61,557 nt of DNA from a virus (taxonomy: Duplodnaviria > Caudoviricetes), in the IMG/VR virus record IMGVR_UViG_3300014165_000002, positions 1 to 61,557 of that record, one strand, 5' to 3'. The position numbers and the translations under genes were made by a program. Of this stretch, positions 42,772 through 59,706 are shown piece by piece (the stretch's first letter is position 1; each line of letters starts with the position of its first letter). The notes below the pieces were generated by a model. The model saw nothing but the letters and a program-made list of their open reading frames with translations, was not told the DNA's origin and searched no databases.

Positions 42772-44640
42772 TCATGTGCCGCCTCCTGGCGGCATGCCCA
42801 TCGCCGCGCCGAGGGCGTTCCCGCCGCTCAGATTGGCCTGAGACAGCGTCTTGGCGGCGTTAACCGCAGCCATCGCCTGTTCTGGCGCCTGCGCCTGCTG
42901 CTGGCCCTTCTCGCGGGCGTCGTCGTGCGCTTTGACCTGCTCCTCGGTGAAGAAGAGGTCGGACGGGCAATTGTTGATCTCGGCATATCGGCGCCATGCC
43001 TTGCCGAGGTCCATGATGCGCAGCGGATCAGGCAGGCCCGCCGCCTTAGCCGCGCTGGACAGCGAACCGCCGATGCCGAGGGTGTCTTTCAGCGCCACGC
43101 CTTCCGCCGCCAGTTGCGCGAGACGCATGATCGACGTGTAGGTGATCTTGAGTGGGATCGGGCCGCCGCCGACACCTCCCTGCATCAGGCTCTTCGGCAT
43201 GGGCTCGAGGAGCTTGCGACGCTCGGCGATCGCCATGATTCGCCGCAGTATGATCGACAACTGGCCTTCGACGTTGCGGATGACCGGGCCGAGTTCCTGA
43301 AGGCGCTCCAAATCGCGTTTCGTGAGTTCCAGCTCGTTGCGCGGCTGCACGCCGGCCATGCGTGTGATGGCCATGAAGACTTCGACGTAGAGGCCTTTCT
43401 CGATTCTCGCGTTGACCAAGGCGATGTCTTGAGTCAGCGCCGGCAACCACTGCGGCTGAACCTCGAACAGGGGCCAAAAGCCCTTTTTCGGGCCGTCGCT
43501 CGTGCAATAGGTCGTCTGGCCTGGCATGGTCGAGGCGGGCTCGTTCTTCAGCGATGGGTCCGCGCCCATGGGCGGCCGAACGCCCTTTTCGATGTATTCC
43601 GCCTTGCGCAGCGTCTCGCGCTGCACCTGCTTGTTGTCGCCCAGAGCGTCCATGCAGGGCCCGCGGCCGTAGGCGTCGTTGCTCGTCGTGGCCCAGCGGA
43701 ACGCGGCGAAGGCGCGCTCGTTGAAGCCGCGCTTGCTCAAAGGACGAAGGCCCTTCTCGGCCTTGATCCAGTAGACCTCACGCCATGTGAAGCGGGCCGG
43801 GACATACTGGATCGAGCCAGCCTTGCCGCCGCGGCCGCGGCCGCGGCGCGCGATCGGATAGTTTGGCTCGATGCAGTGGCACACGACGAATTCGACGCCA
43901 TGCGAGCCGCCCCCTTCGGTCCACATCGTCTGGATTTTCTGCGGGCAGTTCTCCAGCCCAAACATGTCGACGATCTGCTGCACGGTCTGGGTGAATTCGC
44001 GCTCGAACCGATCGACCGAGTTCCTGCCGCCGACGCCGAGATAATATTCCCCAGGCGCTGGCAAATAGAGGCGGATCACGTCCTCCTCGTCCTCGTAGAT
44101 GATGACCGGCGACGTCGCAAAGACCGTGAGGTCCCTGAACATCGAGGCCATTTCCTCGTAGAAATTGGACTCGTCGAGGATCTTGCCGACGCGGCGCTGC
44201 GTGTCTTCCAGCCACTCCTTGGCGTCGGCGTCCAGTTCGACGCCGCTCAAGGCGCTTTCGAACTTCCACCACGGGCGCGCGGGATTGGTGAGGCCGGTCC
44301 ACATGCCGGTGGCGCATGTGCGCACCGCGAGAAGGCCGGTCGAGTCGATGATGCTGTCGTTGATCTGGCCGCCGCGCCACATGCGGTTAGCTGTGACGAG
44401 CCACACGTATCTTCTTGGTTCGAAGAATTCAGCAAGTCTACTCCAATGGGTCCACCAACTCCATCGCCATTGACGATCGGAGTTCATCTGCTGTTCAAGG
44501 TGGCGGTAAACGTCGTCCCATTCCGGGTCCGGTTCGGTCGGCTTTCGCCTCGGCTCGACGGGCTGCTTCGAAAGCAGCGTCGGTCCCATGTGCTCGTATG
44601 AGGCCGGATCTTCGAGATCGACGAGGGAGAGGCGCGCCAT
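42772..44640 (-). CDS. Portal (head-tail connector) protein
   Basis: DSTG..A...ATGM..GLT.PARPW, SNFY, YGRGP.MDALGD, E.L..LGPV. Confidence 0.92.
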   Translation of the reverse strand: MARLSLVDLEDPASYEHMGPTLLSKQPVEPRRKPTEPDPEWDDVYRHLEQQMNSDRQWRWSWWTHWSRLAEFFEPRRYVWLVTANRMWRGGQINDSIIDSTGLLAVRTCATGMWTGLTNPARPWWKFESALSGVELDADAKEWLEDTQRRVGKILDESNFYEEMASMFRDLTVFATSPVIIYEDEEDVIRLYLPAPGEYYLGVGGRNSVDRFEREFTQTVQQIVDMFGLENCPQKIQTMWTEGGGSHGVEFVVCHCIEPNYPIARRGRGRGGKAGSIQYVPARFTWREVYWIKAEKGLRPLSKRGFNERAFAAFRWATTSNDAYGRGPCMDALGDNKQVQRETLRKAEYIEKGVRPPMGADPSLKNEPASTMPGQTTYCTSDGPKKGFWPLFEVQPQWLPALTQDIALVNARIEKGLYVEVFMAITRMAGVQPRNELELTKRDLERLQELGPVIRNVEGQLSIILRRIMAIAERRKLLEPMPKSLMQGGVGGGPIPLKITYTSIMRLAQLAAEGVALKDTLGIGGSLSSAAKAAGLPDPLRIMDLGKAWRRYAEINNCPSDLFFTEEQVKAHDDAREKGQQQAQAPEQAMAAVNAAKTLSQANLSGGNALGAAMGMPPGGGT

Positions 44641-44643
44641 CGG

Positions 44644-44904
44644 TTACTGCCCCAGGCCGGATTTCAGCGCGCCGGTTGTCGTGACCGGCGTTGCAGCGCC
44701 CTGCGATCCGCTGTCGACGGTGCCGCCGAATCCGCCCTTGCCGCTGGCTGCGGCTGCTGCGGCGCGCTGCGCGGCCTGCTCTTGCTGCACGGTGCTGCTC
44801 GCCATCGTCGAGGGCAGCGGAGGGGGTGGAGGGGGTGGAGGGGGGAGCATCATCTGCTGTTGCGCGCCGCCGCCGAAGAGGTTGGAAAAAAAGCTCATCA
44901 TCAC
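44644..44904 (-). CDS. Small Pro-rich virion protein upstream of the portal
   Basis: Poly-Pro tract, G.GGT..SG.QG, ends LGQ. Confidence 0.7.
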   Translation of the reverse strand: MMMSFFSNLFGGGAQQQMMLPPPPPPPPPLPSTMASSTVQQEQAAQRAAAAAASGKGGFGGTVDSGSQGAATPVTTTGALKSGLGQ

Positions 44905-47900
44905 CCTCGATATGGGTTGAAATCCCGCCCTCCGCCTTCCTCGGCGAAGGGGTTGAACTCCTGGTGCCTTGGCAAGACGAGAGGCGGCGCTGATTGGCGC
45001 GGCGTCACGGGCTCCGCGAAGGTCAGGCAGTTGAATACCAAAACGCCATTCGCGTAGAACGCATTATCACGATTTAGGGTCAGGTTGTAAACCATCGTCG
45101 GCGGCACGTTTTCGGTTCGAACACTGACGGGAACAACAAGCGGTCTTCCGATGGCGGTTAGCAGCGAACGCCTTCCCGCAATGAGCGCATGACCGAGTTT
45201 CTGTGAAATAACGTCTAAAAGCAACACTTTGCATACACGCTTTTGAGCAAAATCTTGCTCGCTTGAAGTATGCCTCGAATTCATTTCCGCATTTCTCGCA
45301 TGTATTTGTAAAAACTCGACGATCAACCCAAGCTTCCTTGCCATTCGAACTATGCCAAGCGATGCCTTCCGGAGAAGAATGCCAAGCCTTAGCCAACTCT
45401 CGCGCGCGTTCGCCATGGTTATCGTTGAGCCAGTGGCCAAGGGCTCTCCTCCCGTCTGAATGCAGGGCATAGTGCTCTGCCTCTTTGAGCAATTCCAAGT
45501 TGCTAATCTCGCTGCGCCGCCAATCATCGTCGCGATGATGGACCTCGTGACCATCCGGGATTGGGCCATGATGCTCGGCTCATACGCGCCTATGCAAAAG
45601 CCGCTGACCGAAAACTGGCTGGCGAGAGGAATAATAGCGACCGCTCTTTTGAAGCCAATAGACCGTGCCCTTGTAAACAATCCGCTTGTCATCAGCCATT
45701 TGCGTCGCTCAACCAATGGCGAAATAGCCATGGTCAAGAGTAGCGCGTCAAGTCTGACTTTGCCATAGCCAAACACAAAAATCTCGTGATCCGGCGTGCC
45801 AACGAGCTTCGATCCATCCGAAAATTCGACTGTCGTCAACTGCATGGTCTCATGCGCCCACACTTTTATGGAAAGCGCCTCCCCAAGCGGCGTAAGGATG
45901 CGTTCATTCCCGGCTCGCTCAATCGGGAGCCACCCGCCTGTCGTGGCGATTCTCGTTCCTGCAACGAGGCAAAAAGCGTCCCCCTCGTCGGGGCTGAAAC
46001 CGAGTTCCTTCTTAATATCCTCTTTGGGTTCGAGGAACATTTGATCGTTCCGCATCCCGTATTTCGTTTGCGAGAGGGTTTTGACCAGTTCCTCGCTATC
46101 GGTCAGGGCGCCGCCACGCCTGATCCATTCGCAGGCGTCCCAATACATCTCCATGCGCTTGTTGAAAAAGCGCTTTTTCTCGTGCGGCGAGCCGCCGAAA
46201 TAGATGCTGATCGGCGCGCGCCCGAGCTGGAGCATCCCGTCGCGCCAGCCAGCACCGTAGCCGCCGCCCGCGTCGATGAACGCCGCGTCCGCCTCGCCGC
46301 CGATCGAGGGAAATTCGTTCCAGTGGCGCACCGCGATCGCCGAGCCGTCGGTCGAGTTGACGTGGCGCATCTTCTTGGGGACGAGCGCCTGCAGGCCTTG
46401 TCGCGGGAAGATGACGCTCTGATCGTCGCCATAGTCGGCCACGTCGATGCCGAGCACCTTGGCGCCGGTCGGCCCGCGATAATAGCGGTTCATCGCGGCG
46501 CGAACCTCGTCCTCACTGATGAGGGCGTTGAAGTCCTGGTCGGGGAATTCGCCGAAAATCTTCACGCGAATCCAGGGGTTCTCCCGCCCGTATTCTTGGA
46601 TCTGCTCCAGCGCGTGCTTGATCGAAACGCGCGGCGTCCGGCTTGGGTCGTCGGGGTCGGCCGTGATTGAAATGACCTCCCACAGCCGATTTGCATCGTT
46701 TCGGCGCATCCACGCGCGGAACAACGGGCCGCCGCGCCGCGTTGGATTGCCGGCCTGGATGATATGCGCCTCGATCGGTTCTCCCGAGAAAATAGCCTCG
46801 CATGTCGGCATGACCGCGTCGGGATAGTCGCCGGTCTCGTCGAGCAGCCACATGACATAGGGCGCGTGCAGGCCCGCCAGGGCGTTGCCGATCGCCTCCT
46901 TGTCGGCCGAGCGCGCCCAGCATCGCGCCTCGATACGCCAGGTCTCGGCGTGGCCGCGCATGTAAATCTTGTCGCCGGTCTTTTCAAACAACCGCTGAAG
47001 CAGCGGGCTCTGGATATGCCAGCGGGAAAGCTCGGTCCACAGGCCGGTCTTGAGGTTGGCGCCGGTGATCGACGCGCAGCCGATCATCGAGTGAGGCCGC
47101 GTGAGAATGAAGTTCCAGCCGATCCACGCGAGGACGGTGGTGTTGTGCGTGACGATGAAATCGTTTGTCAGGTAGCAGTGCGAGGGATGCTCGACGGCGA
47201 TGCACATGCACTCGTCCTCGCCGGCAGGCTCGATCGACGTGATGAACCGCGTGAGATAGCGCGCCGAGGTCGGCGAGCGCAGCGGGTCTTTCCAGCGCTC
47301 GGCTTTGTGCGCGATTCGGAAGGGATTGAAGGGGAGGCAGACCGAGACGCGGTAGCAGTCGCGGCATTCGACCATTTGCCCGTCAGGGGCACGGTAGCGG
47401 CCCTCCTTGATCGCCGCCTTGATGAGGGCAACGCCGCCGAGCGAGCGGGCGAGCCACACCACGTCGTTCGCCAGGCGCTCGGACGTGGTGGAATACTCCA
47501 TGTGGCCATCGTCGCCGATGCAGCCGTCCGTGTCCATCAGGCCGCAAATCAGATCGCGGCGCTGGATGATCGAGGCGTATTTGTAGTTGCCGGGGATGAA
47601 CCGCTCGTGGCTTCCAAGATAGAAGCAGTCGAGTTTTTCGAAATCCGCCCTCGACTGTCTGATAAACACGCCTTTCCCATCACTGTGGCGGCTCGTTTCA
47701 TAACCGCGCTTTGCTATTTCATCCTGAACCTCCTGATAAGGTTTCGAGTATTTTGGCTCTCCCTTACATCCGTCGCCGATCCACACGCCGACAAGATATG
47801 GGTCAAGCGGCTGAATCATGTGCGGGAATTGCGCGCCGCCTTGGCGTGGAATCTCGAACTGGTTGCGGCCGTTGTGGGTGGCGTCCTTCACCCCGCGCGC

Positions 47901-48572
47901 GATGATTCGATCGGTCGTAAGGATGGAATATCCATCAGGCGGCGTCAGATAGCCGCCCTGCGCCCGCGCTCGGCACTCAATCGAGCATTGGATGTCGCGA
48001 GCGAGTTCTCTCGCGTCGATCGAAAGCGTGGGGTCTGGCACGTCAAAACGCGGAGTCTTACTCGCCAGACCATGCTCGCTATGAGTCAGGCGTCTCCATC
48101 CGCCCCGCTCGGGCGTCCAGTCTGGAGACTGCCTCATCTTGAAGTGGCGGCGCTCGGTGCGCCCGCGCACCTTCCACAAGTGATCTCCACTGCAAATTGA
48201 CGACGAACCATCGTCGAAAGTCACCCTGAAGAGAGGCATTACACCCTGCGGGTAGACGCCGACAACGCGTGTTGACGATCCATCCTCAGCAAACACGAAG
48301 TCGCCAGGCCTTAAATCGCCAAATCTTCTAAGACCGAAGGGCGTTTCTATAAGCTCTTGTTTTCTAATAGCTTTCCCAGGCCCAGTGCAAGCTTTCATGG
48401 CGAGACGCGGGCATGTCGGGTAACTCCGCAGCGCGCGCTCCTGCCACGCATCGGGCTGCGCGCCGAAAAGCTCGCGCACCATCAATACCGGGTCAACGGA
48501 GTATTTGTAGAAGGCGTCTGCGACGACTCGCTCTTGATCAGATAGGGAATTATATAGTTCACTCCCGCGCAT
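44901..48572 (-). CDS. terL: Terminase large subunit with two inteins
   Basis: After intein removal: Walker A GPGK|TT, LLDE Walker B, GNP, GIDVA.YGDD, SPDEGDAF|CLTFA; current start is supplied by the IS end. Confidence 0.92.
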   Translation of the reverse strand: MRGSELYNSLSDQERVVADAFYKYSVDPVLMVRELFGAQPDAWQERALRSYPTCPRLAMKACTGPGKAIRKQELIETPFGLRRFGDLRPGDFVFAEDGSSTRVVGVYPQGVMPLFRVTFDDGSSSICSGDHLWKVRGRTERRHFKMRQSPDWTPERGGWRRLTHSEHGLASKTPRFDVPDPTLSIDARELARDIQCSIECRARAQGGYLTPPDGYSILTTDRIIARGVKDATHNGRNQFEIPRQGGAQFPHMIQPLDPYLVGVWIGDGCKGEPKYSKPYQEVQDEIAKRGYETSRHSDGKGVFIRQSRADFEKLDCFYLGSHERFIPGNYKYASIIQRRDLICGLMDTDGCIGDDGHMEYSTTSERLANDVVWLARSLGGVALIKAAIKEGRYRAPDGQMVECRDCYRVSVCLPFNPFRIAHKAERWKDPLRSPTSARYLTRFITSIEPAGEDECMCIAVEHPSHCYLTNDFIVTHNTTVLAWIGWNFILTRPHSMIGCASITGANLKTGLWTELSRWHIQSPLLQRLFEKTGDKIYMRGHAETWRIEARCWARSADKEAIGNALAGLHAPYVMWLLDETGDYPDAVMPTCEAIFSGEPIEAHIIQAGNPTRRGGPLFRAWMRRNDANRLWEVISITADPDDPSRTPRVSIKHALEQIQEYGRENPWIRVKIFGEFPDQDFNALISEDEVRAAMNRYYRGPTGAKVLGIDVADYGDDQSVIFPRQGLQALVPKKMRHVNSTDGSAIAVRHWNEFPSIGGEADAAFIDAGGGYGAGWRDGMLQLGRAPISIYFGGSPHEKKRFFNKRMEMYWDACEWIRRGGALTDSEELVKTLSQTKYGMRNDQMFLEPKEDIKKELGFSPDEGDAFCLVAGTRIATTGGWLPIERAGNERILTPLGEALSIKVWAHETMQLTTVEFSDGSKLVGTPDHEIFVFGYGKVRLDALLLTMAISPLVERRKWLMTSGLFTRARSIGFKRAVAIIPLASQFSVSGFCIGAYEPSIMAQSRMVTRSIIATMIGGAARLATWNCSKRQSTMPCIQTGGEPLATGSTITMANARESWLRLGILLRKASLGIVRMARKLGLIVEFLQIHARNAEMNSRHTSSEQDFAQKRVCKVLLLDVISQKLGHALIAGRRSLLTAIGRPLVVPVSVRTENVPPTMVYNLTLNRDNAFYANGVLVFNCLTFAEPVTPRQSAPPLVLPRHQEFNPFAEEGGGRDFNPYRG
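45030..45971 (-). mobile_element. terL intein 2 (314 aa), no in-frame endonuclease
   Basis: CLVAGTRI (block A), GTPDHEIF (block B), VYNL...FYANGVLVFN|C (blocks F/G). Confidence 0.9.
45067..45699 (-). pseudogene. HNH endonuclease with zinc fingers, out of frame inside terL intein 2, interrupted by TGA at codon 40
   Basis: MADDKRIVYKG...LHRRV*AEHHGPIPDGHEVHHRD...SNLELL...CEKC..FCSKAC..CAHC..CCSRQC. Confidence 0.8.
47142..48371 (-). mobile_element. terL intein 1 (410 aa), Ala-initiated class-3 type with LAGLIDADG endonuclease
   Basis: Inserted at Walker A GK|T; starts AIRK; DHLW, CMCIAV, IVTHN; PYLVGVWIGDG and LICGLMDTDG. Confidence 0.9.
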
Positions 48573-48705
48573 CCTTTTTCCTTTCGCGTATGATCTTGGC
48601 TTTGCGGAGCTTTCTCGCTTTCGCGGGCTCGGATTTTGGCTTGGGGAGGAACGCCAAAACCTTATCCGCAACGGCGTCCAGCGCCTTTTTGTAATCGGGC
48701 TTCAT
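48559..48705 (-). CDS. IS passenger small basic protein (48 aa)
   Basis: MKPDYKKALDAVADKVLAFLPKPKS...; AGGAG RBS. Confidence 0.6.
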   Translation of the reverse strand: MKPDYKKALDAVADKVLAFLPKPKSEPAKARKLRKAKIIRERKKDARE

Positions 48706-48713
48706 CGTCGCTC

Positions 48714-49631
48714 CTAATGCGTGAGAGCTTTGTAAGTCAGGCGCTTGCCTGCAACGCCATCAATAAAGCTGTCGAGACGCTGTAGCGTGTGGCGCTTCAC
48801 GTCGCCTTCATTCAAGCGGAAGGAAAATTCATCGACATAGCGGCCCAGATGCTTCTTGCTGGTATGATGGTAGACGCCGATGATCCCGCGCTTCATGACC
48901 GCAAAGACGCTCTCGACGCCGTTGGTGGTCACGTCGTCACGGACATATTCGCCTTCGCTATGATTGACGGTTGCGTGTTCAAAGAACAGCCCATTGAGGC
49001 CGCGATAGACAGCGGCCTCGTCAGTGTGGAGCCTCGAGCCGGCCTCAACATTCTGGTGAATTTTCGTGTGGAGGGTTGCCATGTCCGTGTCTTCGACTGG
49101 CATAGCTTTCATACGCCCGCCGCGCTCGCGCATCGCGACAACGGCGGTTTTACCTACCGTGCCGCGCCCTGCCTTGAGCTTCTTGTGCTCGTGCTTGTTG
49201 GCCTCTTTCCCGCCGACATAGGTTTCGTCAATCTCGACAATGCCTTGAAGCTTTTCGAGATCGGAGCCGCAGGCTTCCCTGAGTCGGTGAAGGACAAACC
49301 ACGCTGACTTTTGCGTGATCCCGATTTCCTTCGCGAGCTGCATTGACGAAATGCCTTTTCGCGCCGTCACGAGCAAATACATGGCGTAAACCCACTTGTG
49401 CAGCGGGACGTGCGAGCGCTCGAAAATAGTGCCGGTGCGGACGGTGAAGTCCTCCTTACACTGGTTGCAGCGATAAAAGCCACTCTTTCGCGCGGTGATG
49501 CGCTCGCCAAGGCCGCAGACAGGGCAGCGCGGGCCATTCGGCCAAAGCCGCGCTTCCAGATAGGCGCGAGCGGACTCTTGGTCTGGGAACATTGCGAACA
49601 GTTCGAAAGTGGAGATGGTTGATTTAGACAT
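48714..49631 (-). CDS. IS1595-family DDE transposase
   Basis: CPVC/CNQC zinc ribbon, FTVRTGTIF, VEIDETY, HTDE, TNGVES, YVDEF.FR.N. Confidence 0.95.
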   Translation of the reverse strand: MSKSTISTFELFAMFPDQESARAYLEARLWPNGPRCPVCGLGERITARKSGFYRCNQCKEDFTVRTGTIFERSHVPLHKWVYAMYLLVTARKGISSMQLAKEIGITQKSAWFVLHRLREACGSDLEKLQGIVEIDETYVGGKEANKHEHKKLKAGRGTVGKTAVVAMRERGGRMKAMPVEDTDMATLHTKIHQNVEAGSRLHTDEAAVYRGLNGLFFEHATVNHSEGEYVRDDVTTNGVESVFAVMKRGIIGVYHHTSKKHLGRYVDEFSFRLNEGDVKRHTLQRLDSFIDGVAGKRLTYKALTH

Positions 49632-49878
49632 TGTCTACCCTTTCCCCGCTCGCGTTCATCCAACGAAATGACTCGATGACTTTTTCAATTTCAGCGAGAC
49701 GCTCGTCTGTAATATCATCGTAATAGGTATCGAAAAGCATAGCGACGACCCTGTGAAGCCGGTCCCCCGGCTTCACTATAAGTTCTTGATTTGCATATTC
49801 ATCAGAAACACGTTGCATAATCATGCCCCCAACAAAGAGGAGTAAGCGACGTATTTTTCCATTTCGTTGGTCATCCAA
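49624..49878 (-). CDS. IS passenger hypothetical protein
   Basis: ORF inside the TIRs, overlapping the transposase start. Confidence 0.45.
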   Translation of the reverse strand: MDDQRNGKIRRLLLFVGGMIMQRVSDEYANQELIVKPGDRLHRVVAMLFDTYYDDITDERLAEIEKVIESFRWMNASGERVDNV

Positions 49879-50039
49879 GCGCCGTGCTTATGTGCCTCAA
49901 TCTGTCCACGGGTCATGCGCTCGACCACTTCGCTGGCATTGGTTCCAAGCGTCCATTGCCCCTTGATCAGACGCTGGTTTGTCGAAAGAAGGTCAATCGC
50001 CTGTTCGCGAGAGACGGTGGAGTTCCATGTAAGCTGCAT
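49821..50039 (-). CDS. IS passenger hypothetical protein
   Basis: AAGGGAG RBS just after the IS promoter. Confidence 0.55.
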   Translation of the reverse strand: MQLTWNSTVSREQAIDLLSTNQRLIKGQWTLGTNASEVVERMTRGQIEAHKHGAWMTNEMEKYVAYSSLLGA

Positions 50040-50065
50040 GTTCGATCTCCCTTGTTGATAAAAAC

Positions 50066-50094
50066 AAGGTAGTTTATTCCCTCACGATTGTCAA
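50066..50094 (-). promoter_or_regulatory. Sigma70-like promoter inside the IS left end
   Basis: TTGACA-17 bp-TACCTT. Confidence 0.7.
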
Positions 50095-50246
50095 GGGACT
50101 AAAATATATAATTCCCATCAGATAGGGCTATCGACGTGCTCCATGCGCGGGATCTGTGACCGGCTCACCGTGGGAAAGGGGAACGGAAACCCCACGGCGC
50201 CGGCTGCGAGAGGTTACGATGCCACTCTCTCGCTTGGCGATGGCGG

Positions 50247-50474
50247 TCAACTCCCAAATTTTGCGAGATCCTTGCGGATCTCGCTCAGCACGATCCGCAT
50301 GCCGAGCTCGTAGCCGACGGCCTGCGACTTGGCGATGGTTTCGTGATCCTCTTTCAGCTTAAGGCGCCGCACATAGGCGCGCTGCAACTCTTCGAGGCGG
50401 CCGGTCTCGATATCGGAGAGGTCTCGTGGGATGGGGCCGGCGGGCTTGATCTCGTAAGGCTCGTCAACGTTCAC
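50247..50474 (-). CDS. Hypothetical protein
   Basis: GTG start overlapping the upstream TGA (GTGA), with AAGGA RBS. Confidence 0.55.
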   Translation of the reverse strand: MNVDEPYEIKPAGPIPRDLSDIETGRLEELQRAYVRRLKLKEDHETIAKSQAVGYELGMRIVLSEIRKDLAKFGS

Positions 50475-51154
50475 TTGGGGCGTCCTTCTTTTTCTCGCTT
50501 TTTCTCGCGCTTGTAATGGGCGGCGCGCGAGATTCCGAGGGCTTCCCAAGGCTTGCCCGTCGAGGCGGGACGTCCGCCTTTGGAGCGGGCGGCGGGAGTC
50601 GAACCCGGCGTCTTCGGCTTCGAAGGCCGCTGCTCTGCCTTTGAGCTACGCCCGCGCTTTGGTTTGGCGCCCCCGGAGGGAATCGAACCGACTTCTCCAA
50701 GGTCTCGGGCCTTGGCGCTCTGCCGTTGAGCTACGGGGGCGGGTGATGGACTATTGACTCGTTTTAGCCCGCTCCTGCGAACAATCTTGAGGATGTCGTC
50801 GCGGTGAGTGAACCATTCTCCATAGGCGCGGAAGGGCTCAAAAAACCGATGCAGCAGCTTTTCGAGGCGCTCATCGCCTTCGATCGCATAGGCCGCATCA
50901 AGCCGCTCGGGATGGCCCGTTTGAAGGCCTTTCACGCGAGAGAGCACGTCCCCGCCCGTAAATCCTATTTTGAGGAATCCGAGAGGCCCGGTCCCTTCGA
51001 TGAAGTAGACTGTTCCACGGCCCGGCGCTTGCGCATCAACTCCCGCTGATAAGCCTTCCGATCGAAGGAGCCCTTCGGCGCTCGCTTCGGCTTCGGCGAA
51101 GGCTTTTCCTTCGCTTTGGGTGGGCGCGGCTCCTGCGGCTTCTTCTCCGAGCAT
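50471..51154 (-). CDS. GIY-YIG-like (T5orf172/Mug113) protein whose frame runs through two tRNA-like genes
   Basis: VYFI...LKIGFT...RVKGLQTG.P...EKLLH..F...GEWF; C-terminal KPWEALGISRA.HY. Confidence 0.65.
   Translation of the reverse strand: MLGEEAAGAAPTQSEGKAFAEAEASAEGLLRSEGLSAGVDAQAPGRGTVYFIEGTGPLGFLKIGFTGGDVLSRVKGLQTGHPERLDAAYAIEGDERLEKLLHRFFEPFRAYGEWFTHRDDILKIVRRSGLKRVNSPSPAPVAQRQSAKARDLGEVGSIPSGGAKPKRGRSSKAEQRPSKPKTPGSTPAARSKGGRPASTGKPWEALGISRAAHYKREKKREKEGRPK
50581..50655 (-). tRNA. tRNA-Arg(UCG)
   Basis: GCGGGCG/CGCCCGC acceptor, GCTC/GAGC D-stem, loop CT-TCG-AA, GTTCGACTC T-loop, encoded CCA; single mismatches in the anticodon and T stems. Confidence 0.8.
50665..50740 (-). tRNA. 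Atypical or degenerate tRNA (anticodon loop CCCGAGA)
   Basis: GCCCCCG/CGGGGGC acceptor, D-stem, GTTCGATTC, CCA; 6-bp anticodon stem, no U33, two T-stem mismatches. Confidence 0.6.
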
Positions 51155-51192
51155 GGAGCCTTGTCCTCTGTGTCGACATAACGAATAGCCAT
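50965..51192 (-). CDS. Small basic protein downstream of terS
   Basis: FDRKAYQRELMRKRRA motif; overlaps the GIY-YIG ORF in another frame. Confidence 0.5.
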   Translation of the reverse strand: MAIRYVDTEDKAPCSEKKPQEPRPPKAKEKPSPKPKRAPKGSFDRKAYQRELMRKRRAVEQSTSSKGPGLSDSSK

Positions 51193-51201
51193 TGCGTTAG
51201 A

Positions 51202-51765
51202 CTAACGAGCCTTATTGTCTAGGTCAACTACCTCCACAGGTCGCGCCTCTATCGTTTTCATCTCCTCCCGCCGGCGCGCCGCGACCTCCTCGATGATCGA
51301 GGCGATCGACACTTCCACCGTGCCCTCGACCTGGGTTTTCTCCCCATAGCGCTTCTGATTCATCTTGCCCGCGCGCCACTGCTTCGACCAGATGAGGACG
51401 CGTGCCGCTTGTGGGTCGATCTTGCGGGTCTCCAGTTTTTTTTCGACGTCAATCATTGCAGAAACAACGGCCTCTGCCTGTCCATATTCTCGCGCGCGCG
51501 CGATACGTGCCGCAAAATCAGGGTCTTCCCCCTGCAATCTGAGAAGCGTCGCGTAGGACGGCATCCCTGCGATTTTGGCTATGTCTTTGAAAGAATGGTC
51601 TGTTTCGATGAGGGAAATGATTTTGTCGATGAGCTTGGGGGATTTTGTCCAAGGGGTTTTGGGGCCTCGCTTTTTTGGGGTGGGCTTTTTTTTGGGTGAG
51701 ACGGTTTTTTTGGACTTGTCCTGCTTACGTTTAGCCGGAGGGGATTTGGCTTTCGATGCTGGCAA
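51202..51765 (-). CDS. terS: Terminase small subunit (Sf6-like)
   Basis: MPSYATL.R...DPDFAARIARARE...QW.AGKM..KRYGEK. Confidence 0.8.
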   Translation of the reverse strand: MPASKAKSPPAKRKQDKSKKTVSPKKKPTPKKRGPKTPWTKSPKLIDKIISLIETDHSFKDIAKIAGMPSYATLLRLQGEDPDFAARIARAREYGQAEAVVSAMIDVEKKLETRKIDPQAARVLIWSKQWRAGKMNQKRYGEKTQVEGTVEVSIASIIEEVAARRREEMKTIEARPVEVVDLDNKAR

Positions 51766-51840
51766 GGTCTCGGCTCTTTTTTCAAGGGGTCTCGCGCCTT
51801 GAGGATATGCGAGATTTCGACGAGGCGCGAGGGGATTGGA

Positions 51841-52038
51841 TTAGGCGCCGAACGCCTCGATGCGAACTTTGAGGATGTCGTTATAGGCACTCATGAAGAT
51901 CGCTTGTGCGTGAAGCCGCGCTTGTTCCGCCGGTGCGAGTCCATCGAAGGTGGTGCTCACATGAAATTTTCTGAGCTTAGCGAGCTTGTCTTCAAGATCG
52001 TTTTGCTCCTCCACGACGCGCTGTTGATGCGGTTGCAT
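51841..52038 (-). CDS. crAss001_48-like small helical protein
   Basis: MQPHQQRVVEE..DL..KL.KL..F...L..Q...M..Y..IL..RI..F. Confidence 0.7.
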   Translation of the reverse strand: MQPHQQRVVEEQNDLEDKLAKLRKFHVSTTFDGLAPAEQARLHAQAIFMSAYNDILKVRIEAFGA

Positions 52039-52043
52039 TGGCG

Positions 52044-52265
52044 TCACTCCTGCCAAGTCGCCGCTTTGACGGCCCACATCTGGGCGCCTTGCGCTTCGGT
52101 GATGGCGATCGAGTGCAGGCGCTTCTGCTCGCTCGAGGCCACGGGATTGTTGCGCGCATCGTGGGCGATGTCGATGATCTGCGCGTAGAGGGATTTGATC
52201 TTGGAAACAGTGTCGTCGCCGCTGGGGTTGAAGGACAGGCCAACGGCCTTTTCACCAAAAGTCAT
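52044..52265 (-). CDS. Acb2/Tad1-like hairpin protein (putative nucleotide-signal sponge)
   Basis: FNPSGD..V.KIK...R..SIAITEAQ.AQMWAVKAATW. Confidence 0.6.
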   Translation of the reverse strand: MTFGEKAVGLSFNPSGDDTVSKIKSLYAQIIDIAHDARNNPVASSEQKRLHSIAITEAQGAQMWAVKAATWQE

Positions 52266-56914: not shown

Positions 56915-59476
56915 TCACGTGGTCCTTTCTGTCATCCATGGGGGTTGGGCGCCATCATCCCCAGGCGGGGAGCCTTTTCTTTCCTTCTCCTTGGCTTTTG
57001 CGAAAGCGATGCGGCGAGATTTTTCCCATCCGAAAATCACCGCGTCGGGATAGCGCGGCGTCTTTTGCAGCGTGTTCGCCGGAGCCACGCCGAATTTGTC
57101 CCGAAAGGCGTAATAGGCCCATCCGTCTTTCTTCCCGCGGTCGCGCGCAATCCAAATCAGCCCGGAATACCAGCGCTGCTTGGTTTCCATGTCGGCTTGC
57201 TCTTTTGGCTTGCGCTTCGAACCGATCTCGGCAAGCTCGCCCTCCTCGCAGGCGATCTTGCTTTTCGGCGCCGTCTCGAAACCGCAGGCCGGGCATTTCA
57301 GGACGCGCGCCGGCTTCATGAACGCGCATTGTGGGCACGCCTTCGGCAAGGCTTCCTTGCGCCCGGCCGCCTTCTGTTGCTCTTCCGGCTCCCATGGGAA
57401 GCTGTCGTAGTAAATCTCGTCAGGCATGCCGAGGCGGGCGATAGTGTCGCTGTGATCGAACACCAAGCAGTTTTCTTTGCCGGGGGCCGTCCGCAGCCCG
57501 CGCCCGACGATCTGCAAATAGAGCATTTCGCTGCGGGTCGGCCGCGCCATCGAAATGCAGGACACAAACGGGGCGTCCACGCCCGTCGTCATCGTGCCGA
57601 CGTTGCAGATGACTTCCAGTTCGCCCGTGCGCAGCTTGTCCACCAGCTCCTCGCGCCCGCCTGGGCCTTCGACCTTGGTGTAGGCGTCGACGTAGCCGGT
57701 GCGCACGCCAGCGGCCAGGAACTGCGCTTGCAGCGCCTGGGCATGGGCGCAGTTGACCGCGAACACCAGCGTCTTGCGCCGCTCGGCCTTCTCCAGCCAC
57801 GTCGTCACCACATCGGCGATCAGCTTCGGCTTGTTCATCGCCGCGCCAAGCTGGCCCTCGTGATAGTCGCCGGCGACGATCTTGACGTCGGAAAGGTCGG
57901 GGACGGACGGTGCGAAGGCGCGGAACGGCGAGAGATAGCCTTTCTGGATGAGGCCGTAGGTCGTCTCGACGACGATCATGCGGTCAAAATAATCGACGAG
58001 TCCCTTGCGCCAGGGCGTCGCCGAAAGCCCGATGAAGACTGTTCCGGGGTCCGCCTCGTCCATCCAGTCCTGATGAGCCTTGTGGAAAATGTGGCAGTTG
58101 TGGACTAAGACCCCTTCAGCAAAATAAGAAGGGTGTCCGCTGACGTGCAGGTTGAACACATCATCAATGCGTCCGCATTCTTTAGGCGATATACTTTCCA
58201 CCCTAACGTCGCCAAAAACCGATCCTTTTTCGCGTCCAGTTCTCGCGCCCGCGGAGAGTTGTGCGATCCACCATTCAATTCCACGCCGAGCTTTTCCGAA
58301 GGCTTCGCCAAGTCGAGCTTGTAGCTCCCGGGAATGCCATAGCCGCGCGGCATACCCGTCGTTACTGCAAACTCTGCTTTCCACTCCTCCCCCAAGATCG
58401 CAAGCATCGCTTCTTGCGGCTTCGTCATAGGCCTTCCATTCCCGCCGCGAACGCTCGGCGCGTGACCAATGCGCTTGAAGGTGGCGCGCTGTTTCTGGCG
58501 TGACGCATCCGAGTGCATCGGATTTGACAACTTCTTGGCACAGGATATCGAGCAGCATTTCTGCTGCGCCCATGCCTTTTCGCTGACGATCGCTCCGCCG
58601 GCCGTCATGGCGGAAAACATCTCTCCACAAACAACGCACATTTTTTGCGAAGAACTCGCTCGCTGCCGCCATGAGCCAATTTTTATTTTTGCGCAACCCG
58701 GACACCGCGTCCGAACCTTCCATCGACTCTCCGCCTCTAACGCATGTGGGCGGAACAGAGCGCCACATAGTTCGCAAGCCTTCACGGCTGAAAAGAAACG
58801 AATCCCTCTCCAATTCCCCGCACGCTGTCCATCCGGCACCTGAGAATGCTGGATGATTTCTGGTGATTCGCAGCGTTCGTCCATTGCTCATTCCTATGGA
58901 AATCGGCGTAGCGACGCGGCGTGAGATCGCCTTGATTCGCCCGACACCTATTGCATTACAAACATAATCACCTTCTTTCAAATCCTCAATGTTTTTCTCT
59001 CCGAAAGGAGTCATAATTTTTGTTCCGCGCACAACACACTCATCGAACAGCACGACGTCAGCCTGCGGGCGGCGGCGGCGCCCAACGGTCTGGATTGAGC
59101 AAATCTGCACGGGCGCGGTGTGATCGGTCAGGAGGTTGTCGCCCTGCACGACGCCGATGTGATCCATGCCGGCGCGCTTGAAGGCGCGATAGGTCTGCGG
59201 GATCAGGCTCAGCAGCGGGACGACGAAGGCGCATGTGCGGCCGCGCGCTCGCGCCGCGGCGAATATGGCGCTGGCGACGAGGCACTTCCCCGCGCCGGTC
59301 GGAGCCGAAAGAACCGGGCGCACGCGGCGGCGAACAATCTCCTCGACGCTATCCCGCCTCATCTTCACGTCGATCCACTCGGAAATGGCGCGGCGGCATT
59401 CGTCGACGGCGTGCTCCTGATACTCGCGGAGGATTAAAGGCTCTGCGGTTTTTGGTTCGTCAAAAAGGGTGGTCAC
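56915..59476 (-). CDS. SF2 DEAD/DEAH (RadD/YejH-like) helicase with an intein
   Basis: LREYQ, APTGAGK, DE|CH, GLSATP, TTGVDAP, RPTRS..LYLQ.VGRGLR, C-terminal CPQC/CPAC. Confidence 0.92.
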   Translation of the reverse strand: MTTLFDEPKTAEPLILREYQEHAVDECRRAISEWIDVKMRRDSVEEIVRRRVRPVLSAPTGAGKCLVASAIFAAARARGRTCAFVVPLLSLIPQTYRAFKRAGMDHIGVVQGDNLLTDHTAPVQICSIQTVGRRRRPQADVVLFDECVVRGTKIMTPFGEKNIEDLKEGDYVCNAIGVGRIKAISRRVATPISIGMSNGRTLRITRNHPAFSGAGWTACGELERDSFLFSREGLRTMWRSVPPTCVRGGESMEGSDAVSGLRKNKNWLMAAASEFFAKNVRCLWRDVFRHDGRRSDRQRKGMGAAEMLLDILCQEVVKSDALGCVTPETARHLQAHWSRAERSRREWKAYDEAARSDACDLGGGVESRVCSNDGYAARLWHSRELQARLGEAFGKARRGIEWWIAQLSAGARTGREKGSVFGDVRVESISPKECGRIDDVFNLHVSGHPSYFAEGVLVHNCHIFHKAHQDWMDEADPGTVFIGLSATPWRKGLVDYFDRMIVVETTYGLIQKGYLSPFRAFAPSVPDLSDVKIVAGDYHEGQLGAAMNKPKLIADVVTTWLEKAERRKTLVFAVNCAHAQALQAQFLAAGVRTGYVDAYTKVEGPGGREELVDKLRTGELEVICNVGTMTTGVDAPFVSCISMARPTRSEMLYLQIVGRGLRTAPGKENCLVFDHSDTIARLGMPDEIYYDSFPWEPEEQQKAAGRKEALPKACPQCAFMKPARVLKCPACGFETAPKSKIACEEGELAEIGSKRKPKEQADMETKQRWYSGLIWIARDRGKKDGWAYYAFRDKFGVAPANTLQKTPRYPDAVIFGWEKSRRIAFAKAKEKERKGSPPGDDGAQPPWMTERTT
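58097..59038 (-). mobile_element. Helicase intein (314 aa) in Walker B, no in-frame endonuclease
   Basis: CVVRGTKIMT...IEDL..GD.V; ITRNHP; VFNLHV..HPSYFAEGVLVHN|C. Confidence 0.92.
58105..58884 (-). CDS. Zinc-finger plus DUF559/Vsr-like endonuclease in the +1 frame of the helicase intein
   Basis: CELC, CPGC, CVVC, CCSISC; TKPQ...YKLDLA....KLGVELNGGSH...D.KKD.FL..LGWKVYR. Confidence 0.85.
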   Translation of the reverse strand: MDERCESPEIIQHSQVPDGQRAGNWRGIRFFSAVKACELCGALFRPHALEAESRWKVRTRCPGCAKIKIGSWRQRASSSQKMCVVCGEMFSAMTAGGAIVSEKAWAQQKCCSISCAKKLSNPMHSDASRQKQRATFKRIGHAPSVRGGNGRPMTKPQEAMLAILGEEWKAEFAVTTGMPRGYGIPGSYKLDLAKPSEKLGVELNGGSHNSPRARELDAKKDRFLATLGWKVYRLKNADALMMCSTCTSADTLLILLKGS

Positions 59477-59706
59477 CGCGCGTTCCTCCTCGCCCAATCC
59501 ATCTGCCTTCGCTTCATGCCTGCGTGCAGGTCGCGGGCCATTTTCTCGTCGTCAGGGTGCTCGCCGCCACACAGCCACACGCAATCCGCCTCAGTGATCT
59601 CGCCGCGCTTGCGTTGCGCGAGGACAGACGGCGGGGCCGGCCGATCGGGATAGCGCCGCAGGAAGGCTTTGATGGCCGGGTCGGAGTAGTCGACGTAGCG
59701 GCTCAT
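59473..59706 (-). CDS. Hypothetical protein
   Basis: Coupled to the initiator stop and the helicase start. Confidence 0.55.
   Translation of the reverse strand: MSRYVDYSDPAIKAFLRRYPDRPAPPSVLAQRKRGEITEADCVWLCGGEHPDDEKMARDLHAGMKRRQMDWARRNAR

Follow-up and report, generated by a model that had tools for sequence, protein, structure and literature searches.

A gene whose coding frame runs through two transfer RNA (tRNA)-like genes lies on the minus strand of the viral record IMGVR_UViG_3300014165_000002, which is referred to below as the window and was analysed over its full 61,557 bases (completeness estimate 95%). This gene, an open reading frame (ORF) named ORF B, encodes a T5orf172 nuclease-type domain, a linker whose codons include both tRNA-like sequences and a short C-terminal tail. 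In the reading favoured here, to which a probability of about 0.62 is given, ORF B is a real T5orf172 nuclease-like gene in which the linker DNA would serve two uses, as codons and as at least one tRNA gene, tRNA-Arg (UCG). The first-pass annotation of the window had proposed that ORF B encodes a nuclease-linker-helix-turn-helix protein with tRNA sequence as its linker, or that tRNA processing cuts a late transcript between terS and terL, the small and large terminase genes. The features that carry the argument are as follows.

50471-51154, minus strand: ORF B, 227 residues, made up of an overprinted leader (residues 1-45), the nuclease-type domain, the tRNA-coded linker, the tail and the stop
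50774-51016, minus strand: T5orf172/MUG113 domain, residues 47-127, of GIY-YIG superfamily type (Pfam)
50665-50740, minus strand: upstream tRNA-like gene, anticodon CGA, CCA encoded, coding for residues 139-164 of ORF B (ARAGORN, Rfam)
50581-50655, minus strand: tRNA-Arg (UCG), CCA encoded, intact cloverleaf, coding for residues 167-192 of ORF B (ARAGORN, Rfam)
50474-50580, minus strand: C-terminal tail, residues 192-227, with GRP followed by a PW...G.SR...Y.R motif and two predicted helices
50247-50474, minus strand: next ORF, 75 residues, no family match; its GTG (50472-50474) overlaps the ORF B stop TGA (50471-50473) as GTGA

Across the window, ARAGORN found exactly two tRNAs, both on the minus strand and both inside ORF B, at 50665-50740 ('Ser', cga) and 50581-50655 (Arg, tcg). 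The Rfam tRNA model RF00005, whose gathering score is 29, gave 42.9 bits to the upstream copy and 58.7 bits to the Arg copy (E 6e-12, full model length). These coordinates agree with the ORF list in placing both cloverleaves inside an uninterrupted ORF on the same strand, as the first-pass annotation had stated; the residues that it quoted as a protein-like tail are found in the ORF B translation, and the coupling of the ORF B stop to the next gene through GTGA is likewise seen. Between the end of the domain and the stop, there are no stop codons in the ORF B frame and two in each of the other frames. In-frame ATG, GTG or TTG codons occur only at residues 1, 70 and 74 of ORF B, all upstream of the tRNAs, and in the homologous ORF B of contig L002, described below, none occurs after residue 143, so that every start again precedes the tRNA. 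Because no stop comes before the tRNAs and no start comes after them, the tail would be made only by translation through tRNA sequence. The phase in which the tRNAs are read here, where the T loop gives the codons GGT and TCG, is stop-free in 16 of 23 tRNAs of the Caulobacter phage CcrBL10, as compared with 9 of 23 in each other phase.

The sequence at this locus is reproduced exactly in contigs from two further public runs, one a metatranscriptome (X2; contigs spanning 50179-50583 and 50608-51159, the latter with the domain and the whole upstream tRNA) and one from DNA (X3; 50529-50962), and the gap at 50584-50607 in X2 is covered by X3. As contigs of three runs are identical, the frames of ORF B are no assembly error. 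The X2 contigs come from one RNA study, have flat depth and belong to a type of library in which DNA is possible, so that they say nothing on transcription, processing or RNA ends.

In a word-indexed search of 5.8 billion proteins, the one relative of ORF B to appear besides the query was P0002, a protein of 213 residues that is 54% identical over 96% of ORF B, and a query search of viral contigs found no close relatives. The DNA for P0002 lies on two metagenome contigs, L001 and L002; as their sequences agree completely over the region, they count as one independent sequence. In L002, the frame of ORF B stays open through a single same-strand tRNA, tRNA-Gln (UUG), which scores 58.4 bits and has its CCA encoded, and the position of the upstream tRNA of the window is taken up by about 90 bases that are not tRNA sequence. 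The frame was thus kept open across a change in tRNA content. It was considered whether the window tRNA-Arg (UCG) and the L002 tRNA-Gln (UUG) are orthologues that differ by one anticodon base, and this was ruled out by their different acceptor and D stems. The gene downstream of ORF B is a different one in L001, where the stop/start overlap is kept (GTGA in the window, ATGA in L001).

Selection was assessed with Nei-Gojobori counts between the window and L002, with codons aligned through the proteins, as the proportions of synonymous (pS) and non-synonymous (pN) sites that differ. In the domain (residues 46-130), pS is 0.81 and pN is 0.18, which indicates purifying selection with saturated synonymous sites, and substitutions fall 14/14/50 by codon position. 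The linker (residues 131-191), with a pS of 0.75 and a pN of 0.55, has almost no constraint at the protein level and is partly non-homologous. In the tail (residues 192-219), pS is 0.615 and pN is 0.118, with 12.5 synonymous and 7.5 non-synonymous differences and a dN/dS of about 0.1. By these counts, the tail is under purifying selection as protein in the ORF B frame, and the two tRNA-like sequences stand between two selected modules.

An architecture of domain, linker and tail is also found in relatives. Among 1.84 billion representatives searched exhaustively with HMMER, 8042 were relatives at E<=1e-3. The best 150 of these were examined together with the query and P0003, an unrelated match, as a set of 152 proteins. 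The same C-terminal module follows the T5orf172 domain in nine of the 152 (P0001, P0002, P0004, P0008, P0046, P0060, P0075, P0118 and P0128), consisting of G-R-P, a spacer and then P-W...G.S-R/K..W/Y-Y-R; P0001 was missed by the regular expression used and was added by eye. The linkers of the nine are 35-75 residues long and unlike one another, and a T-loop-like G-S-x-P peptide precedes the tail only in P0001, P0002 and P0128. Seven of the nine are counted as having no T-loop-like peptide in the linker. Domain-only relatives are commoner than those with domain and tail. The tail is also seen at the end of, or inside, further phage ORFs (L004-L015) whose N-termini are Zn ribbons or of other kinds, and it is thus a shuffled module. 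Two observations on this module may be recorded separately. In the viral contigs L006, L008, L013 and L014, the tail motif is internal to longer ORFs, which measure about 290-360 codons from stop to stop. Residues 100-206 of P0128, a T5orf172 protein, make up its linker and tail and are 90% identical to the corresponding part of a Zn-ribbon protein at 1872-2324 of L004, so that a C-terminal half has been swapped between N-terminal domains.

A second tRNA in frame before this tail occurs in another gene family. On the viral contig L009 (identical with L040), an ORF of 125 codons without a T5orf172 domain contains a tRNA-Arg (UCU) of 61.4 bits with encoded CCA, which lies on the strand of the ORF and in the same phase as here. 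The N-terminal motif of this ORF (S-K-x-D-Q-L/V...) recurs in L005 and L015, both of which have tRNA-free linkers, and in the tail the ORF is almost the same as that of L015. The junction is alike in L002 and L009, with the CCA completing a Lys codon that is followed by S-K-R-G-R-P. In L009, a TTG lies inside the tail at codon 87, and a separate start for the tail would be possible there. L009 is an independent second case of a tRNA in frame before this tail, and the frame is thus open through a tRNA in L001/L002 (one independent sequence) and, in this other family, in L009. Two pattern scans (T loop, CCA, tail) of 2.9 million IMG/VR viral contigs, which did not include the window record, gave one stretch with the strict pattern and 12 with the loose pattern, of which one was true, and no further case beyond the L009 contig was found; the patterns need a canonical GGTTCGANTCC T loop and an encoded CCA, and other cases may have been missed. 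The pair P0128/L004 was considered as a third case, since its linker peptide 'A-G-S-I-P' is T-loop-like, and was rejected when cmscan (E<=1) and ARAGORN found no tRNA in L004.

Several results weigh against the favoured reading, and they concern the open frame, the tail, the tRNAs and the start of ORF B. When the 300 bases after the domain were shuffled with composition matched (20,000 shuffles), 9% were stop-free in a given frame, and local G+C is about 57-60%. An open frame of this kind is not, by itself, beyond chance, and the case for a real gene is one of comparison with other sequences. It could accordingly be supposed that a domain-only nuclease-type protein and two tRNAs lie side by side here, that the frame between them is open by G+C richness, and that the tail is not made or is made separately. 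Small protein clusters of the protein Atlas would fit such an explanation, because those nearest to the tail are 42-59 residues long (scores 0.91, 0.89 and 0.85) and stand-alone tails may exist; it would also fit that all 24 viral loci related to P0008 are without a tail matching the regular expression used, most of them with 80-100 residues from the start of the match. The selection tests rest, moreover, on one pair, the window and L002. Yet no stop separates domain and tail, so that translation of an intact mRNA has to continue into the tail; dN/dS in the tail is about 0.1, and neither genome offers a canonical start codon beyond the tRNAs; domain and tail share one polypeptide in nine of the 152 proteins; and the frame stayed open while its tRNA content changed. 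Chance read-through is therefore considered very unlikely.

The tRNAs themselves raise a different doubt. Canonical tRNAs have a 7-base anticodon loop with U33, and tRNA-Ser has a long variable arm. The upstream copy fails these canonical features of an elongator tRNA, as it has two non-standard T-stem pairs, a 9-base anticodon loop in the Rfam model alignment, C33 and, despite its Ser anticodon, no long variable arm, and it is an aberrant, possibly decaying tRNA. The Arg (UCG) copy satisfies the loop and stem rules and is ambiguous in its identity elements. U73 is an identity element for Gly and A20 for Arg, and in a tRNA alignment the acceptor stem and U discriminator of the Arg copy resemble those of the tRNA-Gly (UCC) genes of CcrBL10 and L002, so that its charging is uncertain and it may be a remoulded tRNA. 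The window pair has weak blastn matches (75% over about 110 bases) to an adjacent tRNA-Gly pair of phiCbK-like Caulobacter phages. Of the Arg codons in five large phage genes, CGA makes up 10% and CGG 13%, figures that have little meaning without the host genome. A further tRNA-Gly (UCC) was noticed at 991-1067 of L002, upstream of terS and outside any long ORF on its strand.

As the tRNAs of the homologues are not orthologous, their good cloverleaves could reflect recent insertion and not long maintenance. It could also be held that the cloverleaves are relics, that is, dead tRNA genes captured in the linker that now act as codons only and give no functional tRNA. The defects of the upstream copy, the non-tRNA sequence at its place in L002 and the pairing of a Gly-like acceptor stem with an Arg anticodon in the other copy all fit with relics, and for Alphaproteobacteria Mukai (2021, Int J Mol Sci 22:4605, PMC8124441) describes remnants of tRNA-Sec that are still translated as part of selB. 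Against this, all but the upstream copy among the four embedded tRNAs, namely the window Arg, L002 Gln and L009 Arg tRNAs, reach 58-61 bits over the full length of the model and have their CCA encoded, like ordinary genes, and a linker that is near-neutral as protein (pN 0.55) implies that a cloverleaf should erode fast without selection at the RNA level. That the cloverleaves are relics only is considered unlikely.

The start of ORF B was considered together with ORF A, the small ORF that it overlaps.

50965-51192, minus strand: ORF A, a small basic protein of 75 residues (ORF call), conserved in L002 (68 residues)
51164-51168, minus strand: Shine-Dalgarno-like GAGGA, 9 bases before the ORF B ATG

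The two ORFs share 190 bases, with ORF B read in the -1 frame relative to ORF A, and L001/L002 have the same layout as the window, with terS, a homologue of ORF A (68 codons) and ORF B in its -1 frame. ORF A has no Pfam or PHROG match. In the overlap, the motif at codons 39-58 of ORF A has a pS of 0.53 and a pN of 0.098 and is the selected frame, and the same DNA read as ORF B has a pS of 0.15 and a pN of 0.29. Over the first 45 residues of ORF B, pN (0.36) exceeds pS (0.21), and this stretch is not selected as protein, so that the way in which ORF B starts is itself inferred. One way to account for these data is a -1 frameshift from ORF A, which would give a protein of ORF A motif, nuclease, linker and tail and would leave the reading of tRNA within the linker unaffected. 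The relative frames of the two ORFs agree with a frameshift, as does the switch of the selected frame from A to B just before the domain, and in distant relatives (e.g. P0005, P0019 and P0013) the domain follows peptides that correspond exactly to the ORF A motif read in the -1 frame. At the ORF A/B junction, however, inspection by eye showed no slippery heptamer of the form X XXY YYZ in either genome, and the two genomes differ there by a 6-base indel, while a start codon is kept at the aligned position in both (ATG in the window, GTG in L002) with the Shine-Dalgarno-like GAGGA/AAGGA 9 bases upstream. A frameshift is accordingly considered improbable, and an independent start of ORF B, with an unconstrained overprinted leader, is favoured from these sequences.

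Other observations on ORF A bear on its origin and start. A -1 reading of its basic motif (of the type L-R-S-E-x-L-S-x-G-V) stands just before the T5orf172 domain in P0048 as well as in P0005, P0019 and P0013, in some of them after a Zn ribbon, and in P0003 a different Zn ribbon is followed by the ORF A motif in frame; a DNA module with this motif may widely precede the T5orf172 domain and be read in either frame. When DNA for P0019 and P0005 was sought to examine the overlap with ORF A, only a more distant locus, L041, was found, and it is without the motif. Just before the ORF A start, an identical stretch of 12 bases with the inverted repeat GTTAG/CTAAC spans the terS stop (51193-51206 in the window, 1803-1815 in L002), and ORF A has no Shine-Dalgarno-like sequence of its own.

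At the protein level, ORF B has the build of a nuclease-type domain, a disordered linker and a basic two-helix tail that is predicted to be helix-turn-helix-like. Residues 47-127 match the Pfam families PF13455 (MUG113; 41.9 bits, cut-off 22.3) and PF10544 (T5orf172; 25.5 bits, cut-off 20), in line with the earlier description of ORF B as GIY-YIG-like. In all eight aligned sequences, Y50, K62, I63, G64, R73, E113, W114 and F115 are invariant, comprising the Tyr of the first motif, K-I-G, an Arg and the Glu of G-E-W-F, and these residues are presumably the catalytic positions of GIY-YIG nucleases. A catalytic Glu is mentioned for T5orf172 endonucleases in excerpts of Barth et al. (2023, bioRxiv 10.1101/2023.03.23.533998). 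An AlphaFold model made with the eight-sequence alignment has a predicted local distance difference test score (pLDDT) above 90 in the domain, below 50 at residues 133-196 and of 85-89 in helices at 202-206 and 210-223, so that the tRNA-coded residues 139-192 coincide with the predicted disordered linker. In a structure search of 48,161 chains, the top three matches were GIY-YIG nucleases, namely HIGLE (Z 5.6, root-mean-square deviation 2.8, 79 residues aligned) and Slx1 (Z 5.0 and 4.5), and I-TevI matched the domain at Z 3.2, all of these being below the advised Z of 8; Foldseek against the PDB with the whole model gave no match at E<=0.001. The tail may bind DNA, and the named Atlas clusters nearest to it carry HTH_11, HTH_7 or HTH_23, with scores of 0.78-0.81 that serve as a lead only.

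The neighbouring genes are given next, in the order in which they would be transcribed.

51202-51765, minus strand: terS, small terminase gene (Pfam Sf6_terminase, E 8e-20), directly upstream of ORF A/ORF B and in the same direction
49821-50039 and 49624-49878, minus strand: two further small ORFs (ORF calls)
48714-49631, minus strand: IS1595-family transposase gene (Pfam)
44901-48671, minus strand: terL, large terminase gene, 1256 codons, with Hint, intein and LAGLIDADG matches (profile matches)
42772-44640, minus strand: portal gene (profile matches)

The placement of ORF B between terS and terL, as given in the first-pass annotation, holds directly for terS, a homologue of which occupies the same position in L001/L002; terL lies about 1.8 kb further down, past three small ORFs and the transposase gene. 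The interval from terS to terL is about 2.5 kb here and holds ORF A, ORF B with its tRNAs, the three small ORFs and the transposase gene, and terL directly follows terS in both of the two distant phages examined that share this terS family. No close relative without the ORF B gene turned up in the viral-contig searches, and no terS relatives were found among the viral contigs searched. The interval fits the published picture in which T5orf172 endonuclease genes of modular build gather next to essential genes, terL among them (Barth et al., 2023). A scan of 50000-52145 that covered only the sigma-70-type consensus gave no promoter-like site on the minus strand, and no terminator-like site was found there, which is consistent with co-transcription of ORF B with terS and is no proof of it. 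Two further observations were made on mobile elements. A complete transposase gene of the IS1595 family (ISXO2-like, 48714-49631) sits between the phage terS and terL. The helicase gene (56915-59497, minus strand) has Hint and intein matches like terL, and these two essential genes both seem to host inteins.

Taken together, these observations can be accommodated in the following model. ORF B would have the build of a homing endonuclease, in which a long disordered linker connects the catalytic domain to a short, basic, helix-turn-helix-like tail, and in this phage lineage same-strand tRNA genes would have taken over the linker-coding DNA, in the one phase where most tRNAs carry no stop; the upstream copy, possibly decaying, may now be mainly linker. 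One late transcript, started upstream of terS, would carry terS, ORF A/B and the tRNAs. A ribosome started on ORF B would keep the cloverleaves unfolded and make the full nuclease-linker-tail protein, and its stop would hand over to the next gene. tRNA ends are cut by RNase P and by 3' processing enzymes. An untranslated transcript would fold and be cut at the tRNA ends, giving the tRNA(s), a 5' fragment without a stop, whose product would be tagged for decay, and a tail fragment without a start, so that protein and tRNA would probably be mutually exclusive for each RNA molecule. The anatomy, the conserved open frame, selection on either side of the tRNAs and the recurrence of domain, linker and tail in relatives are observed here, and translation, tRNA maturation, mutual exclusion, nuclease activity and DNA binding are predicted. 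Of the two proposals in the first-pass annotation, the protein with a tRNA linker is thus well supported by comparison, through the recurrent domain and tail, the selected tail without its own start and the open frame of the homologue, with the reservation that the upstream tRNA looks defective; the cutting of the late transcript by tRNA processing is plausible and compatible with it.

A bolder extension of this model is that the tRNA is cargo locked in a selfish nuclease gene. With the tRNA placed between catalytic domain and DNA-binding tail, the gene could then be neither deleted nor removed by recombination without loss of the tRNA, the tRNA would spread by homing, and processing of the shared transcript would throttle the nuclease by leaving a message without a stop. 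On this reading, the recurrence of the CCA-Lys-GRP tail junction in two unrelated host proteins would be the mark of a mobile 'tRNA plus tail' module swapped between phage genes. The extension is put forward as a doubtful idea.

Known systems offer three comparisons. In Alphaproteobacteria, selC (tRNA-Sec) is nested in the selB ORF, as a bioinformatic prediction only, according to excerpts of the report (Mukai, 2021). As in that system, a whole same-strand tRNA lies in an ORF and is translated into residues, and the stop of the ORF overlaps the next start; remnant tRNAs stay as coding sequence there, and the upstream copy here looks decaying. The idea of tRNA processing and full-length protein as alternatives, through a non-stop mRNA, follows the logic set out for selB in those excerpts. 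A second set of parallels is that of mitochondrial tRNA genes inside protein genes, e.g. tRNA-Lys within cox1 of Armadillidium vulgare, as cited by Mukai (2021), where a full tRNA in direct orientation likewise lies inside a coding region. Those cases are ones of extreme genome compaction, as opposed to a 61.5-kb phage with a probable inserted block of about 2.5 kb at this place.

The host gene itself compares with the T5orf172 homing endonucleases of ICP1-like and T5-like phages, which are described in excerpts of Barth et al. (2023) as 'beads on a string' modules that are shuffled between genes and lie beside essential genes such as terL. As in these and in I-TevI, the nuclease-type domain of ORF B stands at one end and is joined by a linker to a module that may bind DNA. 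In that set, 200 of 229 have Zn-finger DNA-binding domains, as opposed to the helix-turn-helix-like tail of about 30 residues that is the putative binding module in ORF B. In the 12 of 44 matching places of that article that were available, no tRNA in a linker is described, and 'tRNA' occurs three times. A full-text literature term search, at the level of listings and abstracts, found no published phage tRNA nested in an ORF.

Such arrangements matter for annotation and for the evolution of modular proteins. To annotation pipelines, a tRNA within a coding sequence is a conflict, which they usually resolve by dropping or shortening one of the two. If both products are made, one transcript would choose between mRNA and tRNA precursor, as a simple switch between a potentially toxic nuclease and a tRNA. 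The disordered linkers of modular phage proteins are able to accommodate tRNA genes, which, to judge from the upstream copy, may decay into ordinary coding sequence.

The kind of arrangement, a tRNA within an ORF, has so far been predicted for a small number of genes, selC/selB among them, and in several respects the present locus differs from it. In selB, the tRNA forms a C-terminal extension with nothing selected beyond it and is the ligand of the protein itself (Mukai, 2021). Here, each homologue carries different tRNAs, and no link between these and the nuclease is seen, so that a functional tie between tRNA and host protein was not found. They are two in tandem, in a phage host, with a tRNA content that has turned over, as judged from the one homologue, with the frame kept open. 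The host gene appears to be of homing-endonuclease type, and the same tRNA-tail junction recurs in an unrelated protein. Above all, tRNAs of elongator type lie here between two separately selected protein modules, so that read-through is needed for function, and a selected module beyond the tRNAs is stronger evidence for real nested genes than the extension in selB/selC.

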